Below, piece by piece: positions 32,148 to 64,000 of a stretch of DNA of 64,000 nt (the first letter of the stretch is position 1; the number at the start of each line of letters is the position of its first letter). The notes under the pieces were generated by a model, which was not told where the DNA came from, did not search any database, and saw only the letters and a program-made list of their open reading frames with translations. Source of the stretch: a virus (taxonomy: Duplodnaviria > Heunggongvirae > Uroviricota > Caudoviricetes); IMG/VR virus record IMGVR_UViG_3300037312_000757. The stretch is one strand, 5' to 3'. The translations under genes were made by a program, and so were the position numbers.

Positions 32148-33680
32148 TTATGCTGCGAGCTTGTATTCAACAGGCTCAAAAGCATCAGCCGTAACGCCTG
32201 CACTAGCGCGTTCGCGAGCACCGTCAAATGCGTCTACTTCGTTGCAGAAGTGTTCACCATTTTCGAACACGACGTTGTGGATGATGGGTTCACCACCCCA
32301 CATCTTGCGGTCGATACTACGGATAGTACCGTCCGCTTCACGCACGTTGATGATGAAGCCTGACAGGGACTTCTTCTTGCTGTCGGTGATAGGTTCCTTC
32401 AGCAATGCAATCCAGTCGCCGTTGACGCTTGCGTCGCGGTTAAACGACATCGCCACAGCTTTTTGCGAGAACGAGAATTCGTCGCGACCAGCTTCGTGGG
32501 TCAAGCCACCGCCCATACCAAACAGGAAGCTACCGAACGACCAACCAGCGTCATCGCACGCAGCCTTGAGAATAACAGGGATGCTGTGCAGGTTGATACC
32601 GTCACCTTGCAGAACGCCGATGTATGGTACCAGTTCCTTGTAACCCAGCTTGTTGATGGTGTAACCGAAGGTGTCACCAGCCAGTTGCAGGATCTTTGGA
32701 ACTTCGACTTCAGGAACACCGCTGTCAGGACGCAGAACCAGCTTTGCGCCTGCTGCGCCGCATGCTTCGATGCGAGGCTTCAGCTCAGGGCCACCGAGGA
32801 ATTCGGTGATGAAACGGTATGCGTTGTAAGTGTCGATAACGACGCTAACGATCGGCAGCCCTTTCAGTGTACCGGCCTTCATGCGACGAACCTTTTCTTC
32901 CAACAGTTCGACCGCCATCACTGCTGCGCCGAAGTCGTTCTTGGTCTTCGCGTCTGAGTTGGCACACATCGTGCTGTGCTCAGTTGCGTCAACCGAACTG
33001 GTGTAGGGCTTCTTGGTGTTGTACAACTTCTTGATGTTGATGTTTGCGCGGCTGCAATCGCTGCCCGAGAACAGCATTGCGTGAGCGATTCCCGCCCATT
33101 GCGCAGCTTCATCGGAGTCAGCACCACGGTCACCAAAGTTGTGAAGTTGGTATTGCACCATAAACGGGTCAGCACCAGTCTTGACTGCATATTCCATCAG
33201 CTTTTCGTACACAGCACGGCTGATAGACGACACGGTCATGAACTTCCAGATGATACGTTGTACAACGGTTTCAACGTAGGATGGCAACCATGCAAAATCA
33301 GGATGGGTATTGACGACGGTCAAAACTGCGGTGTTCGGCAGAATGAGAGTGCCATCCGGCAGAGCTTCGATGCGCAGTGGGAGACGACCGTCAAACTCAT
33401 CAACAATCTTGCGCCAGCCTGCTTCATTGATATCGTAGCCTTGCTCGCCAGCTTCGAGAACTGCTTCGTCGATCATGGCGTGGGTGATGCGAATTGTTGC
33501 CAGGAACTTCGCAAGGTACGTGACACCAGACGTCACCAGAAGCTTGCTCACACCGTTTAGCTTGCGTGGAACCACGCTCGACTGCACGTAACAAACACCA
33601 ACAGGCAGTTGCTTGTAGTGACCGAACTTGTAGCTGTCTTGAGCCAGAATGAAGTTGTTGTTGAGAAGTGTTGCTGTCAT
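32148..33680 (-). CDS. nadV: Nicotinamide phosphoribosyltransferase
   Basis: DSYK.GH..Q, LHNFGDRG, EHSTM, VVIDTY, LRPDSG, QGDG, FGMGGGL, FSQKA, KKSLSG. Confidence 0.92.
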   Translation of the reverse strand: MTATLLNNNFILAQDSYKFGHYKQLPVGVCYVQSSVVPRKLNGVSKLLVTSGVTYLAKFLATIRITHAMIDEAVLEAGEQGYDINEAGWRKIVDEFDGRLPLRIEALPDGTLILPNTAVLTVVNTHPDFAWLPSYVETVVQRIIWKFMTVSSISRAVYEKLMEYAVKTGADPFMVQYQLHNFGDRGADSDEAAQWAGIAHAMLFSGSDCSRANINIKKLYNTKKPYTSSVDATEHSTMCANSDAKTKNDFGAAVMAVELLEEKVRRMKAGTLKGLPIVSVVIDTYNAYRFITEFLGGPELKPRIEACGAAGAKLVLRPDSGVPEVEVPKILQLAGDTFGYTINKLGYKELVPYIGVLQGDGINLHSIPVILKAACDDAGWSFGSFLFGMGGGLTHEAGRDEFSFSQKAVAMSFNRDASVNGDWIALLKEPITDSKKKSLSGFIINVREADGTIRSIDRKMWGGEPIIHNVVFENGEHFCNEVDAFDGARERASAGVTADAFEPVEYKLAA

Positions 33681-33706
33681 GATAAAATTCCTTTATCTAC
33701 GAAATG

Positions 33707-33725
33707 CCCCAAGTCTATCTCGGGG
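33707..33725 (-). promoter_or_regulatory. Leader hairpin with AUAGA loop upstream of nadV
   Basis: CCCCGAG-ATAGA-CTTGGGG. Confidence 0.55.
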
Positions 33726-33801
33726 ACTTTGGGTTAAAAGTTACTGCTGGTGCCAATTGTAAATTGTTTTTTAAATGGCACAATATCAAGGTGGCTAAAT
33801 T

Positions 33802-34905
33802 TTACTTAGCCAATTGGCCCTTTGCCCAGAGCAGCATGTCATAGTGATCTTCGAAACACTCAACACGCTTTACTTGGTGAATCGGGCGCCAGATCGCTTG
33901 CTTTGCGTCGTCGCGACCTTTGACCTTCGGCAAACCAGGAAACGCCTTGTCGTCGAGTAGAATCAACTGTGCTGTCGTGATAACGCGGCCACGACGTGAA
34001 CGCTTCTGATGAGCAAAACGCTTTTCAGTTACAATGCTACCACGCACGGCTAGTTCTGGTACCTTGATGCGTGTTTCTTCGACTAGTTCGCGGATAGCAG
34101 TGTCTACTACGTCAGCATCAGCAGGTTCCATCTTACCGTCAACCATTTCTGGTTCGGCACGCATGAATCCACCAGGCATTGCCCACAGACCCTTTCCAGG
34201 TTGTGACTTGCGCTCGATCATGAGCACATGGCCTGACTTAATCACGATAGCGTCGCCGGTCTGGAAGATCGGTGGGTACTTACTACCTGCACGGGTTGCC
34301 AGCTTGTAATTCTTGATGTAGTTGGCTTCCGCGACAATATAGTCGTAAGCTTCCGTGTGCATGAATTCTTCCAGAAAGCTGATCGTCGATTCTGGGCAGA
34401 CATGCCGGAAGAAGTCTAGGTTGTTCTTCTTGCTGAAATACAGCTCTCGAATGGTAGTCGCATCCAGCACATCGAATTGCGGCGTCAGGATAGGCGTACC
34501 CCATTGCGGGAACATGTTGAGATAGAAACTTGATTCGTCCTTGTTATGGCCGATCAGCTTCGTATTGCCGTGACAATGACCCTCGACTGCATCGGCGACC
34601 CATGTCGCCCATTGCGTGTTGTTATACATGCTGTTCTCGACAGACATGAAGTTCACATCGCAGTTGTATTTTTGCTTGAAATCAGCAGTGATGCGGCGAC
34701 CAACCTCGATCCGTTCGTCTTGATAGAACGGATTGTCTTCGTCGCGCGGCTGATTTGCCGAACCATAAATCAGGTTCAGCGTACCGCATTGCATGGCCGC
34801 TTCGCGCATTGTGCGCTCGTGAGCATTGTGCTGTGGCTGGCCACGAAGAATGAAGTTGATTGTGTCGACGCGTTCTGACGCAGGTGTGATGATGTTCATC
34901 GTCAT
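33802..34905 (-). CDS. natV: Bifunctional NMN adenylyltransferase / Nudix (ADP-ribose pyrophosphatase)
   Basis: RGQPQHNAH (HxGH variant), GSAN...NPF, YN..QW, GH.KD.SSFYL..FP, DAT.IR; Nudix box PGGF...AIRELVEET; DDA, FEDH. Confidence 0.88.
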   Translation of the reverse strand: MTMNIITPASERVDTINFILRGQPQHNAHERTMREAAMQCGTLNLIYGSANQPRDEDNPFYQDERIEVGRRITADFKQKYNCDVNFMSVENSMYNNTQWATWVADAVEGHCHGNTKLIGHNKDESSFYLNMFPQWGTPILTPQFDVLDATTIRELYFSKKNNLDFFRHVCPESTISFLEEFMHTEAYDYIVAEANYIKNYKLATRAGSKYPPIFQTGDAIVIKSGHVLMIERKSQPGKGLWAMPGGFMRAEPEMVDGKMEPADADVVDTAIRELVEETRIKVPELAVRGSIVTEKRFAHQKRSRRGRVITTAQLILLDDKAFPGLPKVKGRDDAKQAIWRPIHQVKRVECFEDHYDMLLWAKGQLAK

Positions 34906-35060: not shown

Positions 35061-35068
35061 TATTTATA
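35061..35068 (-). promoter_or_regulatory. T4-type late promoter
   Basis: TATAAATA. Confidence 0.55.
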
Positions 35069-36959: not shown

Positions 36960-38042
36960 TCAAGTGAACTTACCACCCAAGTCGAGTGGTGTTGATGCGA
37001 CCAACGGTTGGTTGTAGGTCTGGAACAGTTTCACCCAGTTGACAAATTCGGTGAGCTGCATCTTACGTGATGCATCCGTCACGAAATGCGGCTGGTAGAG
37101 GCCTAGGGCTTTCATCTTCTCGGTGCAAGCGTAGGTATCGATCATGTCACCAGTAAGTGCTTCTGACATCATCACGTTGGCTTTCTTGCCAATGATGCTT
37201 TCCAGTTCATTCAAGAACTGTTGCGTCGAAATGGGGTTGCCGGAACCGATGTTAATCACCTGAGACATAGGCTCAGAGCTGAGGTTCAATGAGCCACTAA
37301 ACCTAAGACGCGCCAACAGCTTTTCGACTGCAAACGTGACAGTTGATATGTGCGTAAAGTCGCGCGTGTTCTGTCCGAAATTGTAAAGCTGAATCGGCTC
37401 ATCGTTCAAGATCGAGTTTACGAACTTGTAAGGGGCCATATCCAAACGTCCATAGTCGCCAAACACAGTGAAAAATCGAAGCCCGATTGTTCGCATTGGA
37501 TAATTGGCCGAATATGAGTGTGCAACCAGCTCATTCGACCGTTTGGATGCGGCGTAAAAGTTCAGCGGTTTATTGACGTCAGCATCTTCCTTCATCGGAA
37601 GCGAAGCATCAGCGCCGTAAACACTGCTTGAAGATGCGTAGATGAATTCACGAACATTGCTACGGGCCGCAAACTCAATAACGTTGGAGAATGCCAACAT
37701 GTTTGATGTGGCATATTTGTGAGGACGAGTGATTGACGGTTGAACTCCTGTTGCAGCAGCAAGATGAATCACTGCATCAAAGTTCTCATAAGAGAACAAA
37801 CGTTCAACGTCTGCATGATTAGACAGATCACAGTTGTCATAACGCAGAGCAGGATTAGGTGTGCGATATGTGGCCAGCCGTTTGACACGCATTGACTTCA
37901 GCATGTCAAGTTGATTGGTGGTGTAGATATCACCCAAGTAGTCGCATGCGACTACGTTGTAATAGGTCGACAGACGTAGTGCAATGTGATGGCCAATAAA
38001 ACCAGCCGCGCCAGTAACGAGTATTTTTCTAATCATAAGCAT
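36960..38042 (-). CDS. NAD-dependent epimerase (UDP-glucuronate 4-epimerase-like)
   Basis: GAAGFIG, HLAA, SSSSVYG, YAASK, LRFFTVFG..GR.DMA, RDFTHI. Confidence 0.9.
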   Translation of the reverse strand: MLMIRKILVTGAAGFIGHHIALRLSTYYNVVACDYLGDIYTTNQLDMLKSMRVKRLATYRTPNPALRYDNCDLSNHADVERLFSYENFDAVIHLAAATGVQPSITRPHKYATSNMLAFSNVIEFAARSNVREFIYASSSSVYGADASLPMKEDADVNKPLNFYAASKRSNELVAHSYSANYPMRTIGLRFFTVFGDYGRLDMAPYKFVNSILNDEPIQLYNFGQNTRDFTHISTVTFAVEKLLARLRFSGSLNLSSEPMSQVINIGSGNPISTQQFLNELESIIGKKANVMMSEALTGDMIDTYACTEKMKALGLYQPHFVTDASRKMQLTEFVNWVKLFQTYNQPLVASTPLDLGGKFT

Positions 38043-38072
38043 ACTATACGGCAGTATGCTTGTTACTGCAAT

Positions 38073-38624
38073 TTAAAGGGTCGCTAGAGGGTCACTTAGA
38101 ACGATATGCCCGTCAGCACGCTTCATAATGTTGTCAGGATGCACATCAAACTTATGCGTGCCCTTGTTTATGCCGATAAGCTTCAGAGCAGCAACTAATT
38201 CTGGGTTTTCAGCAACCAAACTTCTTGCAAGCTTCTTGATCTGATCAGGTGTATAGCGACTCAAGTAGGTGTCACGTCCATTGATCCACTTGCAGCAGAT
38301 TGTCATCCAGGCTACAATTTGTTTGTACAACTTAGTTTTGTGGAATGACTCTGGGATGTCTTTCAATCGTTCGACTTCTGCAACATAGAAGCCGTCATGC
38401 ACTGTGAGAGTCTTGATATGAGGGATGTACGGGTTGGAGACGCCTTCGCACGCTTTAGCGTATGTCAGCCAACCATCGCTGGCTGCACCGATCTTAATGA
38501 CGTCGCCTTGTTCTTTTGCGAGCACAATTGCAGCAGCACCGCGTCCGATGATTGAATAACCATCTTGCTGTAGCTGTTGAACGGTCGCTTTCACGCTGGG
38601 TTGGGAGAGGTCGCAGGCTTTCAT
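38073..38624 (-). CDS. Protein kinase, T7 gp0.7-like
   Basis: IGRG.AA.V...VIKIG...DGW..Y...NP.IP.I...DVHPDNIM...LSDP; ATAAATA at 38631-38637. Confidence 0.65.
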   Translation of the reverse strand: MKACDLSQPSVKATVQQLQQDGYSIIGRGAAAIVLAKEQGDVIKIGAASDGWLTYAKACEGVSNPYIPHIKTLTVHDGFYVAEVERLKDIPESFHKTKLYKQIVAWMTICCKWINGRDTYLSRYTPDQIKKLARSLVAENPELVAALKLIGINKGTHKFDVHPDNIMKRADGHIVLSDPLATL

Positions 38625-38650
38625 AAACCATATTTATGAAAGCCAAGTGA

Positions 38651-39013
38651 TTACGATCGTTCGTCGATTGCTTCGGAAAGCTTGAAATGAATCTCGATCA
38701 TACCACCATAAGTGTTGACAAAATAGTCTTCACTTAGGTGTGTGGTGAACAATCCTTTGAGCTTGTTGAGCGACCAACCAAGTGGTTCATCGTCAAGAAC
38801 AACAACCGCAGCGCGTTCCGGGTATTCATTGTATTCGACTTTGGTTGGTGTCAGTCCAACGTGGGTAAATGCGGCCAGGATATTCTTCTTGGCTGCATTT
38901 TCGCGTGCTTCTTCTTTGTCAAACTCATCAATCTGAGCATCCAGATCAGCATCAACAGTTGCGTCTTCTGTGACACCGGCGAGTTTGCGTAGCCGACTTA
39001 GTGAATGTGGCAT
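38651..39013 (-). CDS. Hypothetical protein, probable virion component
   Basis: N-terminal LSRLRKLAGVTED. Confidence 0.6.
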   Translation of the reverse strand: MPHSLSRLRKLAGVTEDATVDADLDAQIDEFDKEEARENAAKKNILAAFTHVGLTPTKVEYNEYPERAAVVVLDDEPLGWSLNKLKGLFTTHLSEDYFVNTYGGMIEIHFKLSEAIDERS

Positions 39014-39160
39014 GTTAATCTCCTTTTGGCATGCCATTTTACACTAATGAATATTCCCGCGCGAATAAAACCGTATCGCGTAACCATACTTGACGCTTTC
39101 AAAGATGATTAGTCAAGCAGCAATGCAAGCGTTACACCTACTTACATTTTAAAAGCGTGG

Positions 39161-39168
39161 TATAAATA
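39161..39168 (+). promoter_or_regulatory. T4-type late promoter
   Basis: TATAAATA; a second TAAATA at 39184. Confidence 0.7.
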
Positions 39169-39233
39169 CATCTTCTCCGCCACTAAATATTCATGAGGGC
39201 TTGGCTGTCCTCATTTGAATAGGAGAAAACAAC

Positions 39234-39503
39234 ATGGCAGACATCACAACAAACGTTCAAAACGTTGCTGATCAAGCTACAGCAGTAGTGGACCAGGCTG
39301 CAGACGCAGCTAAGACAGCAGTTGCAGAAGTTGCACAAGCTGTCACAAACACAGCACCAGCAGTTCAACAAGTCGTAACAGAAGTCAAGGCAGACGTTGC
39401 GCAAGTTGCAGCTGACGTGCAACCAGTAATTGAAACAGTTAAGGCTCAAGGCTTTTTCGCAAAGATCATTGCCAAGATCCTGTCACTGTTCAAGGTTCTG
39501 TAA
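39234..39503 (+). CDS. Ala/Val/Gln-rich 11-mer-repeat protein with C-terminal amphipathic helix
   Basis: SD AGGAG; terminator at about 39537-39556. Confidence 0.75.
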   Translation: MADITTNVQNVADQATAVVDQAADAAKTAVAEVAQAVTNTAPAVQQVVTEVKADVAQVAADVQPVIETVKAQGFFAKIIAKILSLFKVL

Positions 39504-39561
39504 TCACTGTTAAATCATTTAGACCCAAATGATGATTGGGGGCCAATTGGCCCCCATTCCT

Positions 39562-40056
39562 TTATGAGTAGACTGTTTGCAACAGCCAAATCATTTTGTT
39601 GTCAATGTCAGTTAGTCTGCGCATCAACTCATAATCTTCATACGCTTTATCGATAGCTTGTTTCAAGCTTTCAACTTGCGCACGTTCCATCCCTTCGCAT
39701 TTATTATCATATGCTTCACCTAGTTCAAACTGAAGCTTCAGCAATGTCTTTGCCAAACCAAAGAAGTATTCGTTGTCAATCCAAATACCAAAACCAGCTT
39801 TTCGAATAGTCTCAAGCTGTTCTTGATTGTCAATCAAGACAGTGATCCAATATTTTGATGCATTAAACCAGCTTTTGACTGGGCGATAACCAATCATTTT
39901 TGGAATAGCACGTTCAAGCAAGGCGAAGTTCTGTTCTTCTTCTGTCATTTGTCGAGGCCATGACATCGGTTGAACATTGACTATGCTCTGAGCTATAAGG
40001 TTTGGAACCACCTTACGAATCATCGGTAGCATAACCTTCATGTTATCCTGGCTCAT
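39562..40056 (-). CDS. Protein with N-terminal gp23 Gol-peptide-like segment
   Basis: VMLPMIRKVVPNLIAQSIVNVQPMSWP. Confidence 0.65.
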   Translation of the reverse strand: MSQDNMKVMLPMIRKVVPNLIAQSIVNVQPMSWPRQMTEEEQNFALLERAIPKMIGYRPVKSWFNASKYWITVLIDNQEQLETIRKAGFGIWIDNEYFFGLAKTLLKLQFELGEAYDNKCEGMERAQVESLKQAIDKAYEDYELMRRLTDIDNKMIWLLQTVYS

Positions 40057-40391
40057 GAGCCACTCCGACGAATTGCTTCTTGGCGTTCTGTTTCATCCTC
40101 TGCATACGCATCAGCGAAAGCATGCATGAAACATTGCAGCTGATGCACGGACAAATACTGACGCATCGTGCGAACGAATTCTTCTGACATCTTTTGATCG
40201 AGAGCGATGTCATCAAGCTCTTCGACTTTACTCAACCATGCACCAAATTCCGCCATATCGGTGTCGCCATGGTCGACGTGTAGTGTGAAACGTGTCTGGT
40301 GGTGCGGATACACATTGAGCGTATCCAGGGGGCGCCATGATGTGTTTGGAACTTGGAGTTCTTTTAGTTCTTTTCTTACCGAGTTATCCAT
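40053..40391 (-). CDS. Hypothetical protein
   Basis: ORF track; ATGA overlap. Confidence 0.65.
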   Translation of the reverse strand: MDNSVRKELKELQVPNTSWRPLDTLNVYPHHQTRFTLHVDHGDTDMAEFGAWLSKVEELDDIALDQKMSEEFVRTMRQYLSVHQLQCFMHAFADAYAEDETERQEAIRRSGS

Positions 40392-40727
40392 CGAGTTCTC
40401 TTTAGAATGATTGCCCTGTTGTCAGTGGCAACCAGTCTTCGGATCATCTCGTATTGCTCGAATTTCTCTTCCCGGATTGCCATCAGCTTTTTCATTGTAC
40501 GTCTACTAGCCATGAAAAACAATTTATACCAAGGCTTGTCGACTGTTTCTTTGCGAATAGCCAAATCCGAATCAAGCGCTTCTTTCATTGCTTCACGCAA
40601 TGTTTCGCTCTCTTCGAGAATCTTGAATTCGGGTCTGCATCCGAATGAGGATCTGAAAAACTCTACTGCGGATGAACCAGGCCCTTCAGTTTCAAGGGCC
40701 GTGATATACATCCGCAGCGAGGCATTA
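40376..40727 (-). CDS. Hypothetical protein; C-terminus resembles 39562..40056
   Basis: FEQYEMIRRLVATDNRAIIL vs YEDYELMRRLTDIDNKMIWL; start approximate. Confidence 0.5.
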
Positions 40728-41390
40728 TCAGACAGGATCGGTACCTTCGCCACCTTGCTTGTCGTCCTTGCTTTCTTCTTTTTGTTCGTCGCTTGCTTCG
40801 TACTTGCGTGCCAGCACGTTGTCGATGTTGACTGTGCCGTCTGCATTGTGCGTCACACGAATGTCGGTCACCGTGGCAACGTCATCCACGATTTCTTTGG
40901 GCTTGCGAGCCGAGAAGCTGCCGTCACCGGTGATCTGACCGTCCTTCTTCAGTTGGTCGATCATGTCCTTCATCTTCTTGTCAGCTTCCTTTTGCTCATC
41001 CGTACGGCGGTCCCAACGATCGTTGCCTTCCGTGAGGTTTTCGAGCTCTTCGATCGTGCGCGTCTCGCTCACGTCGTAGTAGTCAGGTGCGTCGAAGTCG
41101 ACCATCGCATCATGGCGGTCCCACGCAGCTTGGGGTAGGAGGATCGTGATGCCGTGTTTGGCGATGAATGCGTCACGTTGGGCCACGTCTTTGTGCGTGA
41201 ACACGTAGATATCATGTCGGACCCGTTCGAATTCTGCTGTGAACTTGTCCATGAATTCCGTTTCGCGGCGGTCGATGAACGTGTCGTCATCTGCAGCCAA
41301 ACCTTCGTACCACTTGATGAGGAGAGGGGTGTTGCCGTGGCTGGCCGTCACAACGGTCATATCTGAACCGCTGAGGTATCCGTAAAGCAT
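40728..41390 (-). CDS. Acidic hypothetical protein
   Basis: SD AGGAG. Confidence 0.7.
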   Translation of the reverse strand: MLYGYLSGSDMTVVTASHGNTPLLIKWYEGLAADDDTFIDRRETEFMDKFTAEFERVRHDIYVFTHKDVAQRDAFIAKHGITILLPQAAWDRHDAMVDFDAPDYYDVSETRTIEELENLTEGNDRWDRRTDEQKEADKKMKDMIDQLKKDGQITGDGSFSARKPKEIVDDVATVTDIRVTHNADGTVNIDNVLARKYEASDEQKEESKDDKQGGEGTDPV

Positions 41391-41432
41391 TGATTGCTCC
41401 TGTGTTGACTAGTTTGCCTATTATAGTTTGGC

Positions 41433-41861
41433 TTACGAATTAGTCAACAGCACATAGCAGCCATTTTGCCCATTAAAGAAGTTTTGTATGTTGAGGTGGT
41501 ATGTACCAGGTGAAACCTTCAGGCTGTAAACTGGCACCTCAGGATCAGTACCCACGGCGTCACCAGTGTGAAGGCATATTTGGTAGAGTTTGTAACGACG
41601 GGCAGCCCAGCTTGAAATCATGTCGTTGTTCCAGACAAGACTTTCACCGTATGGAGTGATGCTGAACCAACATCTGAGCGACCAATCTTGTACGCGGGCG
41701 GTATGAATCACATTCACCATGATGTAGCTGTTCTCAGCTAAGGTGAATGGAATAGCAGCAACACGCATGGCTTCGATATTCAGATAGCCATCATCTTCTG
41801 GGTTTATGATGTCCCAGATCTGTTCAGGTTTTGTTGGATCGAAGTTAACGTCTTGTGTCAT
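41433..41861 (-). CDS. Late hypothetical protein
   Basis: ATAAATA at 41887-41893; ATG at 41861. Confidence 0.65.
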   Translation of the reverse strand: MTQDVNFDPTKPEQIWDIINPEDDGYLNIEAMRVAAIPFTLAENSYIMVNVIHTARVQDWSLRCWFSITPYGESLVWNNDMISSWAARRYKLYQICLHTGDAVGTDPEVPVYSLKVSPGTYHLNIQNFFNGQNGCYVLLTNS

Positions 41862-41920
41862 AGTTGAAATGGTGAAAGCCCGCACATATTTATGCGGGCT
41901 TTCAGTTACTGCTGGGGAGC

Positions 41921-42595
41921 TTACTCCCGAGGTTTCATGAAAGTGTGTCCACCTATTACAGCGATACGTTTAAACCTATTTGCCCAGGATGGATGAACCG
42001 TCCTTTGCGCATAGAAATTCAAAGCGCCTGGTACAACTGGATCAACTAGATTCTTCTGCACAATGTAAGCAGCGAGAACGCTGTCATACCACTGTTTGTA
42101 GATTTCTGGTCTAATATCACCGTTGCTATCACGCAATGGAATTTTACCAAGGTTTTGACAAACCCAACTAAACTGACATATGCCTGATGTCTTTTGACGG
42201 ACGATAGCGCATAATGTACCGGCATACTTGCCGCTGTCTAACCTATTTTTCACAACTTCTGTTACTGCCACTTTGTTCTGCAAACTTTCCGCTCGCGCTT
42301 CAAAGAATGCATTTTGTGCCAGACAGTACATTGTAGGGTCCGTTTCCTTCAAGTTCAAAACATAAGTTTCACTTAGGGACACGGTTGCCCGAACGTTGTC
42401 GACTTGCTGTTGCGGAGTCAGTGACGCTTGTGGTTGCAACGTCTCCTGCTGAACTGGCGATGACACTGGTGGTATCATTGCTAGTTCAGCTTTCGAGTTA
42501 TTAGGTCCAGCTTCAACATTAGGAGCCACAATAACTGCAACGGCCAAGAACGACAACATTGATAAGAAATGCTTCAACTTAATCAATGCTCTCAC
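41921..42595 (-). CDS. SleB-like cell wall hydrolase (Hydrolase_2) with N-terminal hydrophobic segment
   Basis: CLAQNAFFEARAE, AV.EVV.NR, CQFSW, GALNFYA, IGGH.F; TATAAATA at 42654-42661. Confidence 0.88.
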   Translation of the reverse strand: MRALIKLKHFLSMLSFLAVAVIVAPNVEAGPNNSKAELAMIPPVSSPVQQETLQPQASLTPQQQVDNVRATVSLSETYVLNLKETDPTMYCLAQNAFFEARAESLQNKVAVTEVVKNRLDSGKYAGTLCAIVRQKTSGICQFSWVCQNLGKIPLRDSNGDIRPEIYKQWYDSVLAAYIVQKNLVDPVVPGALNFYAQRTVHPSWANRFKRIAVIGGHTFMKPRE

Positions 42596-42737
42596 CTCTC
42601 TTCCGAAAAAGATAACGGGTCTGACACCGAAGTGATGGCAGACCCGATACATTTATTTATAGGATGTCACTGATGAGTAAAACCACCTTATAAGTGGATC
42701 ACTCGATAGGTCAATCCCTATATCGTCAGCGAAGGAC

Positions 42738-43142
42738 TTAAAGCATTAATGCAAAACCATGTCGCTCAGCAATGGCGTCCAATTCACTGGTCCATCTTTC
42801 AATGGGAATCACGTCATGAACGTCTTGCAGTTCAACTAGTAAGTTGACCACTGATTCATCATCGACATTCACGCCAGATTGTATAAGCGCATCAGCGAGA
42901 CATTGTTCGCTTGAACGCTTGATGTGACCTCGGGAACGAGGAAATAACAAACACACTCCCGTTCCTTCAATCTGTTGCTGATAGTGCTCTTCGGCGATCA
43001 AGCAACCAATTGCACATTTGTGGCCCCAAGGGCCGTAAAACAGAGGACGATCGTTGTCATCAGTTGAACGCCAATTTTGGGTCAATAGATGATTACGAAC
43101 CTTTTGGTAAATTTCTTGCTTCGACAACACGTAAGACCTCAA
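42738..43142 (-). CDS. Hypothetical protein (tandem paralog 1)
   Basis: LSKQEIYQKV..HLLTQ...CAIGCLI...LQDVHD. Confidence 0.7.
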   Translation of the reverse strand: MRSYVLSKQEIYQKVRNHLLTQNWRSTDDNDRPLFYGPWGHKCAIGCLIAEEHYQQQIEGTGVCLLFPRSRGHIKRSSEQCLADALIQSGVNVDDESVVNLLVELQDVHDVIPIERWTSELDAIAERHGFALML

Positions 43143-43940: not shown

Positions 43941-44004
43941 GTTTCTATTTATAAGATGAACATCAATGGCTGGCACGATGCCAGGGAAGGCCCCTGGCAT
44001 CCGT

Positions 44005-63352: not shown

Positions 63353-63769
63353 TTATTTGATCCAGAATTTATTCTTGTCCGTGTACCACTTTGCGGTGAG
63401 TGTCATTGGCTTATGAGCTGCTGACTTCACTGCCGTCTTGATGACCGAAATGTTAGGCTGGTTGACCTTTGGCTGTACCAAGTCCTTTGGTTGCACCAAG
63501 GCACGCAATGATTGCATGATCTCTTCATCAATGGCCTTTTGAATCTCTTCAGCCATGATATCAGACATTTCACCTTCGAGGTCTTGTCTAAATCCCAGAC
63601 CTGCATCAAATGCGAGACGAAATGCAATTGCGACTTCTTCATCAAAGATATCAAAATTGTGGTAACAGCCACTCTTGTGATATTCGTAATCCGAATAGTC
63701 ATTCTGGCTTTGGAACCAGTCTTTTACTTCCTGGAGAGCTTCTTTGTCTCCCTCAATCCACAGCTTCAT
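63353..63769 (-). CDS. Protein containing two gp23 (major capsid)-like segments
   Basis: DLEGEMSDIMAEEIQKAIDEEIMQSLRAL and ISVIKTAVKS...LTAKW. Confidence 0.65.
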   Translation of the reverse strand: MKLWIEGDKEALQEVKDWFQSQNDYSDYEYHKSGCYHNFDIFDEEVAIAFRLAFDAGLGFRQDLEGEMSDIMAEEIQKAIDEEIMQSLRALVQPKDLVQPKVNQPNISVIKTAVKSAAHKPMTLTAKWYTDKNKFWIK

Positions 63770-63999
63770 TATGGTACTCGAACGTTAATTGCCCCGGTAC
63801 TACCTGGGGGACTTAGTAGTGGTACATATGGCGCATAGAAATAACCAGCATCGACCTTCTGTTCCCCGAATGTAAAACAGTAGCCACGTTTTACGTTATC
63901 GAACGCCAGGAAGAATTCCAATGCCACGTTATCACCCAACACTGAAATGTCATACGTCCACAGCTCACCATCAGACCTATGTTTGTTCAAATCCCAACC
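63769..63999 (-). CDS. 5'-truncated protein ending in a gp23 C-terminal motif
   Basis: DAGYFYAPYVPL; frame is open to the window edge. Confidence 0.6.
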   Translation of the reverse strand, partial: GWDLNKHRSDGELWTYDISVLGDNVALEFFLAFDNVKRGYCFTFGEQKVDAGYFYAPYVPLLSPPGSTGAINVRVP

Positions 64000-64000
64000 A

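Follow-up and report, generated by a model that had tools for sequence, protein, structure and literature searches.

Introduction

Many bacterial defences are triggered by the phage major capsid protein (MCP), among them Lit, CapRel, some Thoeris and some CBASS systems. Lit (e14) cuts EF-Tu between Gly59 and Ile60. In T4 the Gol region of nascent gp23 binds domains II/III of EF-Tu, which renders EF-Tu cleavable by Lit, and the Gol block has been described as the most conserved portion of gp23 (PMC3014915). The N-fist of gp23 comprises residues 66-91 and Met98 is located in the N-arm (PMC7136217); the Gol region (residues 93-122) is therefore essentially the N-arm. This arm is disordered in the prohead; not until expansion does it take up an ordered state, on the capsid surface, where it binds neighbouring subunits (PMC9958956). 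As related in PMC3012670, the N-terminus of gp23 also sends passenger proteins fused to it to GroEL (Snyder and Tarkowski 2005).

T4 also offers a precedent for short N-terminal peptides on unrelated small proteins, namely the targeting sequences of its internal proteins (IPI-III and Alt). These capsid-targeting sequences are about 10 residues long, unlike gp23 in sequence, bind the scaffold core and are removed by the gp21 protease.

Here we analyse P0001, a 164-aa ORF of a phage that encodes a gp21-type protease of its own. The source record is 523,836 bp (~524 kb) long with direct terminal repeats, and comes from rhizosphere metagenomes; the sequencing runs found to contain the stretch were two of rhizosphere DNA and none of RNA. 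The window is the whole 64,000-nt stretch analysed, corresponding to positions 232518-296517 of the source record on the minus strand; coordinates refer to the window unless the source record is named. Among cultured phages, Sinorhizobium phage Phosso has the most similar MCP (80% identity), followed by Agrobacterium phage Atu_ph07 (70%), which makes a rhizobial alphaproteobacterium the probable host. P0001 resembles the T4 Gol/EF-Tu/Lit system in having a homologous peptide, one that in T4 can act outside the folded capsid protein (PMC3014915). In contrast to T4, where the Gol region is part of the capsid protein and the host is E. coli, the peptide of P0001 is a natural tag on a non-capsid protein, likened to Gol by its sequence. 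The GroEL fusions likewise put a gp23 segment before an unrelated passenger, but these were engineered and, as that work is summarized by others, contained a longer piece of gp23 than the Gol block of P0001. The literature searched contained no description of natural non-capsid proteins with a Gol/N-arm block, and none of a phage countermeasure that works by capsid-peptide display or decoy.

The N-terminus of P0001 is homologous to the capsid N-arm

P0001 occupies positions 39562-40056 on the minus strand. Its N-terminal sequence is MSQDNMKVMLPMIRKVVPNLIAQSIVNVQPMSWP, positions 39955-40056 coding exactly for residues 1-34, and the tag itself, KVMLPMIRKVVPNLIAQSIVNVQPMSWP, comprises residues 7-34 (39955-40038, minus strand). 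Residues 7-35 align with positions 6-34 of the Pfam profile Gp23 (PF07068) at 25.5 bits (E 1.1e-5), against a family cut-off of 24.4 bits, and PHROG 138, 'major head protein', matches P0001 with an E of 1.6e-4. The genuine MCP gene of the phage (407 aa) lies at 117404-118627 of the source record (L002:1297-2520), behind genes for a gp21-type prohead protease and a coiled-coil scaffold; residues 74-101 of its product are identical to residues 7-34 of P0001 at 16 of 28 positions (BLASTP E 3e-9). When the 4159 ORFs of the genome were searched with phmmer, this MCP was the only other match to P0001 (E 9e-5).

The only matches among solved structures are T4 gp23 chains, with residues 9-35 of P0001 on gp23 95-121, inside the Gol region, and 13 of 27 residues identical; PNLIA, VQPM and the Met98 position are among the identities. 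An earlier note, made from the letters of this DNA, had given just this gapless alignment (about 13 of 27 identical) and proposed that a piece of the gp23 Gol region stands by itself at the N-terminus of an otherwise capsid-unlike protein, naming PF07068 and the phage's own MCP as checks. The alignment proved exact, the two checks gave significant matches, and the Pfam, BLASTP and structure-sequence matches together confirm that the segment is genuine.

P0001 is nevertheless a non-capsid protein. Measured by the full profile it is not a member of the Gp23 family: it covers just 29 of the 376 positions and the remainder is a helical bundle, so that homology to the family is confined to the N-arm block. 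Neither Pfam nor the AlphaFold2 model gave any sign of capsid likeness beyond residues 7-35, in agreement with what the note had said of the rest of the ORF. The model, computed from a nine-sequence alignment (mean pLDDT 80, pTM 0.70), is all-helical, with a confident five-helix bundle at residues 38-160 (39577-39945, minus strand; pLDDT 85-95) and a C-terminus reading LLQTVYS. Residues 1-27 have a pLDDT below 50 and no predicted structure. Searches with the bundle returned no assignment from the PDB (Foldseek, E >1) or the ESM Atlas (TM ≤0.36), and an exhaustive structural scan gave generic helical bundles only (Z ≤6.3); family searches found no match for it either. With its disordered residues 1-27 and its confident but unmatched bundle, P0001 is therefore best described as a novel helical domain preceded by an exposed peptide tag.

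Word-index homologue searches with the whole of P0001 and with residues 1-40 recovered P0001 alone, a peptide-pattern scan of viral contigs with P0001 gave no match, and megablast of the P0001 region against phage genomes was likewise negative.

P0001 is the last of four genes in a unit among accessory genes

A GGAG ribosome-binding site, read from the sequence, is found at 40063-40066 (minus strand), 6 nt 5' of the P0001 ATG. The ATG shares bases with the stop codon of the preceding ORF (ATGA), and the two are therefore probably translationally coupled. This upstream ORF (40053-40391, minus strand, 112 aa), in the same unit as P0001, has no family match and is missing in a relative (locus L007 of genome G001) whose MCP is 99% identical to that of this phage. 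Further upstream, 40376-40846 (minus strand) encodes a distant, tag-less paralogue of the P0001 helical domain, with which it has the C-terminal motif Y-E-x-x-R-R-L-x-x-x-D-N in common. A GC-rich palindromic hairpin at 39537-39556, 3' of the P0001 stop codon and between P0001 and a convergent 89-aa plus-strand gene, is likely a terminator. A near-consensus sigma-70-like promoter (TTGACT, 16-nt spacer, TATAAT; 11 of 12 matches) is located at 41420-41447 on the minus strand, 30 nt 5' of a 220-aa ORF that leads the four-gene unit ended by P0001.

P0001 sits among accessory genes, ~139 kb away from the head module. Its syntenic block includes a NAMPT gene (32148-33680, minus strand, 510 aa) adjoined by a gene for a bifunctional NMNAT/Nudix protein (33802-34905, minus strand, 367 aa), both of NAD salvage; we take this pair (32148-34905) to resemble the phage NAD-reconstitution pathway reported as counter-defence. 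A 183-aa T7 gp0.7-like kinase is encoded at 38073-38624 (minus strand; phrog_15752, E 2e-14); its L007 counterpart is 84% identical, and the syntenic block of a third relative (L010) lacks it.

The syntenic ortholog of P0001 in L007 (L007:8550-9080, 176 aa) is 38% identical to P0001, which is the most diverged gene of the syntenic block, its neighbours being 44-84% identical. The tag is kept in this ortholog and is longer there (VGVQPMSQSTGSIF; Pfam 40.8 bits): the second half of the block (STGSIF) is present in L007 and has been lost from P0001. Exhaustive HMMER and profile searches recovered the tag-less homologues of the helical domain P0003, P0004, P0006 and P0007, the last being the positional ortholog in L010. 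Given the tag-less P0007 and the shortened block of P0001, the tag is dispensable for the carrier domain.

These data bear on whether the tag serves for capsid docking or targeting, in which case the orphan N-arm would bind the N-arm site of a neighbouring subunit or the prohead interior and the carrier would be packaged or attached. The T4 N-arm binds neighbours in trans after expansion and is inside the prohead earlier (PMC9958956, PMC7136217), and a prohead protease of gp21 type belongs to the T4-like head module of this phage. An L-x-E follows the tag both in P0001 (LLE, L46-L47-E48, inside the predicted helix 39-53) and in the L007 ortholog (LRE), a weak pointer, the motif being common. 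Such a role is hard to square with the accessory setting ~139 kb off the head module and with fast divergence (38%) opposite a 99% conserved MCP; moreover, each capsid subunit brings its own N-arm. We regard docking or targeting as unlikely.

The tag is found on at least three carriers

The N-terminal tag was seen on no fewer than 20 complete small ORFs from metagenomes, IMG/VR and cultured Phosso. Their carriers are of at least three kinds: the helical bundle of P0001, an alpha-beta-beta-alpha domain that we call LRW (a name given in this analysis to a family that has no published one) and a 226-aa Phosso protein. Tagged LRW proteins include P0005, P0008-P0013, L107:1285-1611, L137, L159, L194 and others; P0005 and P0008-P0013 are complete proteins of 102-136 aa in which the N-terminal tag precedes a ~50-aa alpha-beta-beta-alpha domain ending in F-x-L-R-W. 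Their genes lie in same-strand arrays of small genes, away from contig ends, and a complete 374-kb relative has one such gene among arrayed LRW paralogues. When IMG/VR was surveyed with a tag profile, 80 loci were recovered, of which 53 are MCPs and 13 are short but complete ORFs whose tag lies close to the N-terminus; the LRW motif terminates most of these 13. In Phosso (PV764938.1) a 226-aa tagged ORF at 182175-182855 has a third type of C-terminal part. In most orphans the tag begins no more than ~30 residues from the N-terminus, and AlphaFold2 left it unstructured on both carriers modelled (helical bundle and LRW).

The LRW family is large, with ~60 ORFs at E <0.01 in this genome alone, each with a variable N-terminal part before the conserved ~50 aa and the C-terminal motif D-A-x-x-F-K-L-[RT]-W. 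These ORFs cluster at ~41-43, 181-205, 213-218, 312-326, 369-376 and 459-470 kb of the source record. The domain has no family in Pfam or PHROGs, and the only proteins of similar structure are uncharacterised ones from phages, Atu_ph07 among them. P0001 lacks the terminal F-x-L-[RK]-W and is absent among the LRW HMM matches of the genome. It has the tag signature, N-terminal position and predicted disorder of the tag in common with the tagged LRW proteins, P0005 being the example discussed below, and differs from them in its 120-aa helical bundle as opposed to their ~50-aa carrier. P0001 thus stands beside the tagged LRW proteins as a sister architecture, outside their family.

Ten aligned tags have P11, R14, P18, A22, Q29 and P30 invariant and M12, I13, K15, I21, I25 and V28 near-invariant. 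P0001 has all six residues of each set and agrees with the consensus LLPMIRKVxPxLIAQDIVGVQPM. Mean pairwise identity of the ten tags is 64% over 25 core columns; outside the tag, the LRW-type orphans are just ~29-44% identical overall. The N-arm scarcely varies among 80 MCPs of the clade (67-99% identical overall), reading ILPVIRRVMPTVIANE[IL][VI]GVQPMTGPV. The signature of the tags, LPMIRK and PNLIAQ, is consistently unlike this clade N-arm, which marks the tags as an old, separate lineage, and the tag of P0001 is nearer to that of P0005 (23 of 30 identical, trailing PRQ included) than to its own MCP.

This pattern points to a conserved module under selection, not to duplication debris. The earlier note had named random decay of the segment in homologues as the outcome that would speak against it, and had suggested surveying related phages. 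Instead, the ortholog and many unrelated small proteins retain the segment, and the survey found the same tag on several carriers. The notion of an orphan segment needs amending in other respects: the segment is a real gp23 homolog, but it belongs to the LPMIRK/PNLIAQ lineage and is not a recent copy of the resident MCP, it is not unique to P0001, and blocks of the MCP other than Gol are displayed as well.

This conservation speaks against the view that P0001 is a neutral chimera, a functionless piece of capsid gene pasted by illegitimate recombination in a fast-shuffling region. Such an origin would suit the highly paralogous small-gene arrays, the missing tag in the tag-less homologues and in the positional ortholog P0007, and the block of P0001 being shorter than in L007. 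It would leave unexplained the invariant residues in at least ten tags whose carriers are otherwise dissimilar, a tag lineage that keeps its own signature with no drift to randomness, the consistent N-terminal placement, and ORFs that are intact in IMG/VR, in metagenomes and in a cultured phage. On balance a neutral chimera is improbable.

Other blocks of the capsid protein on small ORFs

Weak PF07068 matches in the genome led to three further small ORFs, each with a different conserved block of the MCP. In a 138-aa ORF at 63353-63769 (minus strand), whose N-terminal LRW-like domain is borderline (E 0.066), residues 63-92 (63494-63583) correspond to the spine helix, reading EMSDIMAEEIQKAIDEEIMQSLRAL vs IEAEIMAALAQEITAEIDQEILTSLRAL in the MCP. 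The C-terminal block (FYAPYVPL strand) is found at 63814-63900, DAGYFYAPYVPL vs DAAAYYCPYVPL in the MCP, in a 112-aa ORF whose 3' part occupies 63769-64000 (minus strand) and whose start lies past the end of the window. An A-domain (RGAG) block is carried by an ORF at 299664-300239 of the source record (minus strand). With the N-arm included, four different conserved MCP blocks thus appear on small proteins of this genome. Relatives show the same kind of arrangement: L012:583-921 combines a spine-helix block with an LRW domain (37.9 bits) and adjoins the tagged gene P0008, an ORF of the 453-kb relative G003 ends in IDVAAYYCPYVPLTSNGVI, and Phosso has DAAVFYTPYVPL together with an LRW domain.

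The spine-helix and C-terminal-block ORFs are adjacent in the window, in a block order that differs from that of the MCP.

The remnant of a broken second MCP gene was considered as a source of the fragments and rejected, since the pieces are 24-68 kb apart, not collinear and on different strands, and each is an in-frame fusion to a carrier domain. The idea that large genes of every kind have shed fragments was rejected as well: when all ORFs were compared with one another, most of the other similarities between a large and a small ORF extend over 60-130 residues and look domain-like. The exceptions were one 309-aa protein and one AAA ATPase, whose shared stretches are just 30-60 residues long. 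The ORF at 38651-39037 was tried as a mimic of the scaffold C-terminus (LRKLAGV vs ILRLAGL) and dismissed, the alignment not being significant.

Buried blocks such as the spine helix and the C-terminal strand, on similar carriers, cannot dock on a folded subunit, which counts further against capsid docking. Alternatively, the displayed blocks might modulate folding or assembly by pairing with folding intermediates of the phage's own MCP or that of a co-infecting relative. Acting on its own MCP, such a protein would delay or chaperone assembly; acting on that of a relative, it would bring about dominant-negative exclusion. The presence of four conserved MCP blocks on small proteins in one genome favours this idea, as do the near-invariant N-arm of clade MCPs, which would let a single mimic suit many relatives, and the fact that chaperonin and co-chaperonin genes were not found in the genome. 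However, the phage's own assembly would be poisoned as well, and a 99% conserved partner fails to explain the 38% identity of the orthologues. A modulator of MCP folding or assembly is, in our judgement, quite unlikely. Should the role be capsid targeting or assembly control, the reuse of capsid blocks as tags on accessory proteins would still mean that giant phages have a novel route of gene innovation.

A possible role in engaging readers of nascent capsid protein

The reading we favour, to which we give a probability of roughly 40%, is that the tag mimics the N-arm of nascent MCP and engages a host factor or a capsid sensor; both the partner and the role are what we infer. P0001 would then be a non-structural accessory protein made of a flexible MCP N-arm-derived peptide and a novel helical bundle, and the peptide a portable, selected module that evolution has put on the N-termini of several unrelated small phage proteins. 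Emerging first from the ribosome, the tag would show the same peptide as nascent, unassembled capsid protein; its constant N-terminal position fits a peptide that needs to be free or first out of the ribosome. It might then engage whatever reads that peptide, the reader in T4 being EF-Tu, coupled to Lit, and, going by the summary of the fusion work, GroEL also. The tag could bring the carrier domain to the reader or compete with capsid protein for it. Because of the gene setting (NAD salvage and the block with the gp0.7-like kinase), the likeliest use would be host takeover or the blunting of capsid-sensing immunity.

A decoy against capsid sensing is one version of this mimicry, and we assign it about half of the weight given to the whole. 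The earlier note had offered two suggestions of this kind, a decoy of Lit-like sensors and a repurposed EF-Tu-binding module; both would be compatible with the fast evolution of P0001 and its accessory-gene context. Some points weigh against mimicry. A faithful Gol mimic is expected to activate a Lit-type protease, not to block it. The tag is absent in the L010 ortholog P0007 and hence dispensable for the carrier domain, and with ~60 copies of the LRW carrier per genome, frequent chance chimeras are possible. A single co-fold of E. coli EF-Tu with the tag (residues 1-60 of the tag alignment) scored 0.00, which has no bearing either way.

A wider proposition, which we hold to be doubtful, extends the mimicry beyond P0001: the Atu_ph07/Phosso clade of jumbo phages, along with many uncultured phages, would encode 'capsid-peptide display' proteins that act as decoys for readers of nascent MCP. 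Small, stable carriers would expose those MCP blocks that are most conserved, namely the N-arm/Gol, spine-helix and C-terminal-strand blocks, and thereby saturate, misdirect or recruit such readers, be they EF-Tu and Lit-like proteases or other capsid sensors. If true, this would amount to decoying those immune systems that sense the structural proteins of phages. The idea is directly testable, because the cultured phage Phosso has the same architecture. A natural, portable copy of the Gol/N-arm also provides a handle on why this block of gp23 is both the most conserved and the one that binds EF-Tu.

Further observations on the locus and its annotation

The genome has just 14 copies of the octamer TATAAATA, which is the consensus of T4 late promoters; 12 of these lie within 120 nt upstream of a correctly oriented ORF start and none lies 5' of the MCP gene. 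The four copies in the window are at 42654-42661, 43946-43953 and 35061-35068 on the minus strand and at 39161-39168 on the plus strand.

In the second rhizosphere sample the phage is present at very high contig depth (~12,000). No variant letters were reported in the contigs covering the region. The contigs of this sample break repeatedly within 38000-43000 of the window, including across 39823-40177, which spans the tag; these breaks may reflect strain variants.

The GenBank annotation of Phosso starts CDS 276 at 182439, within the Gp23-like match at 182280-182546, and the metagenomic gene call P0002 begins with MPNLVAG, within the tag. Since gene callers trim the tag in this way, the tag family is probably under-annotated.
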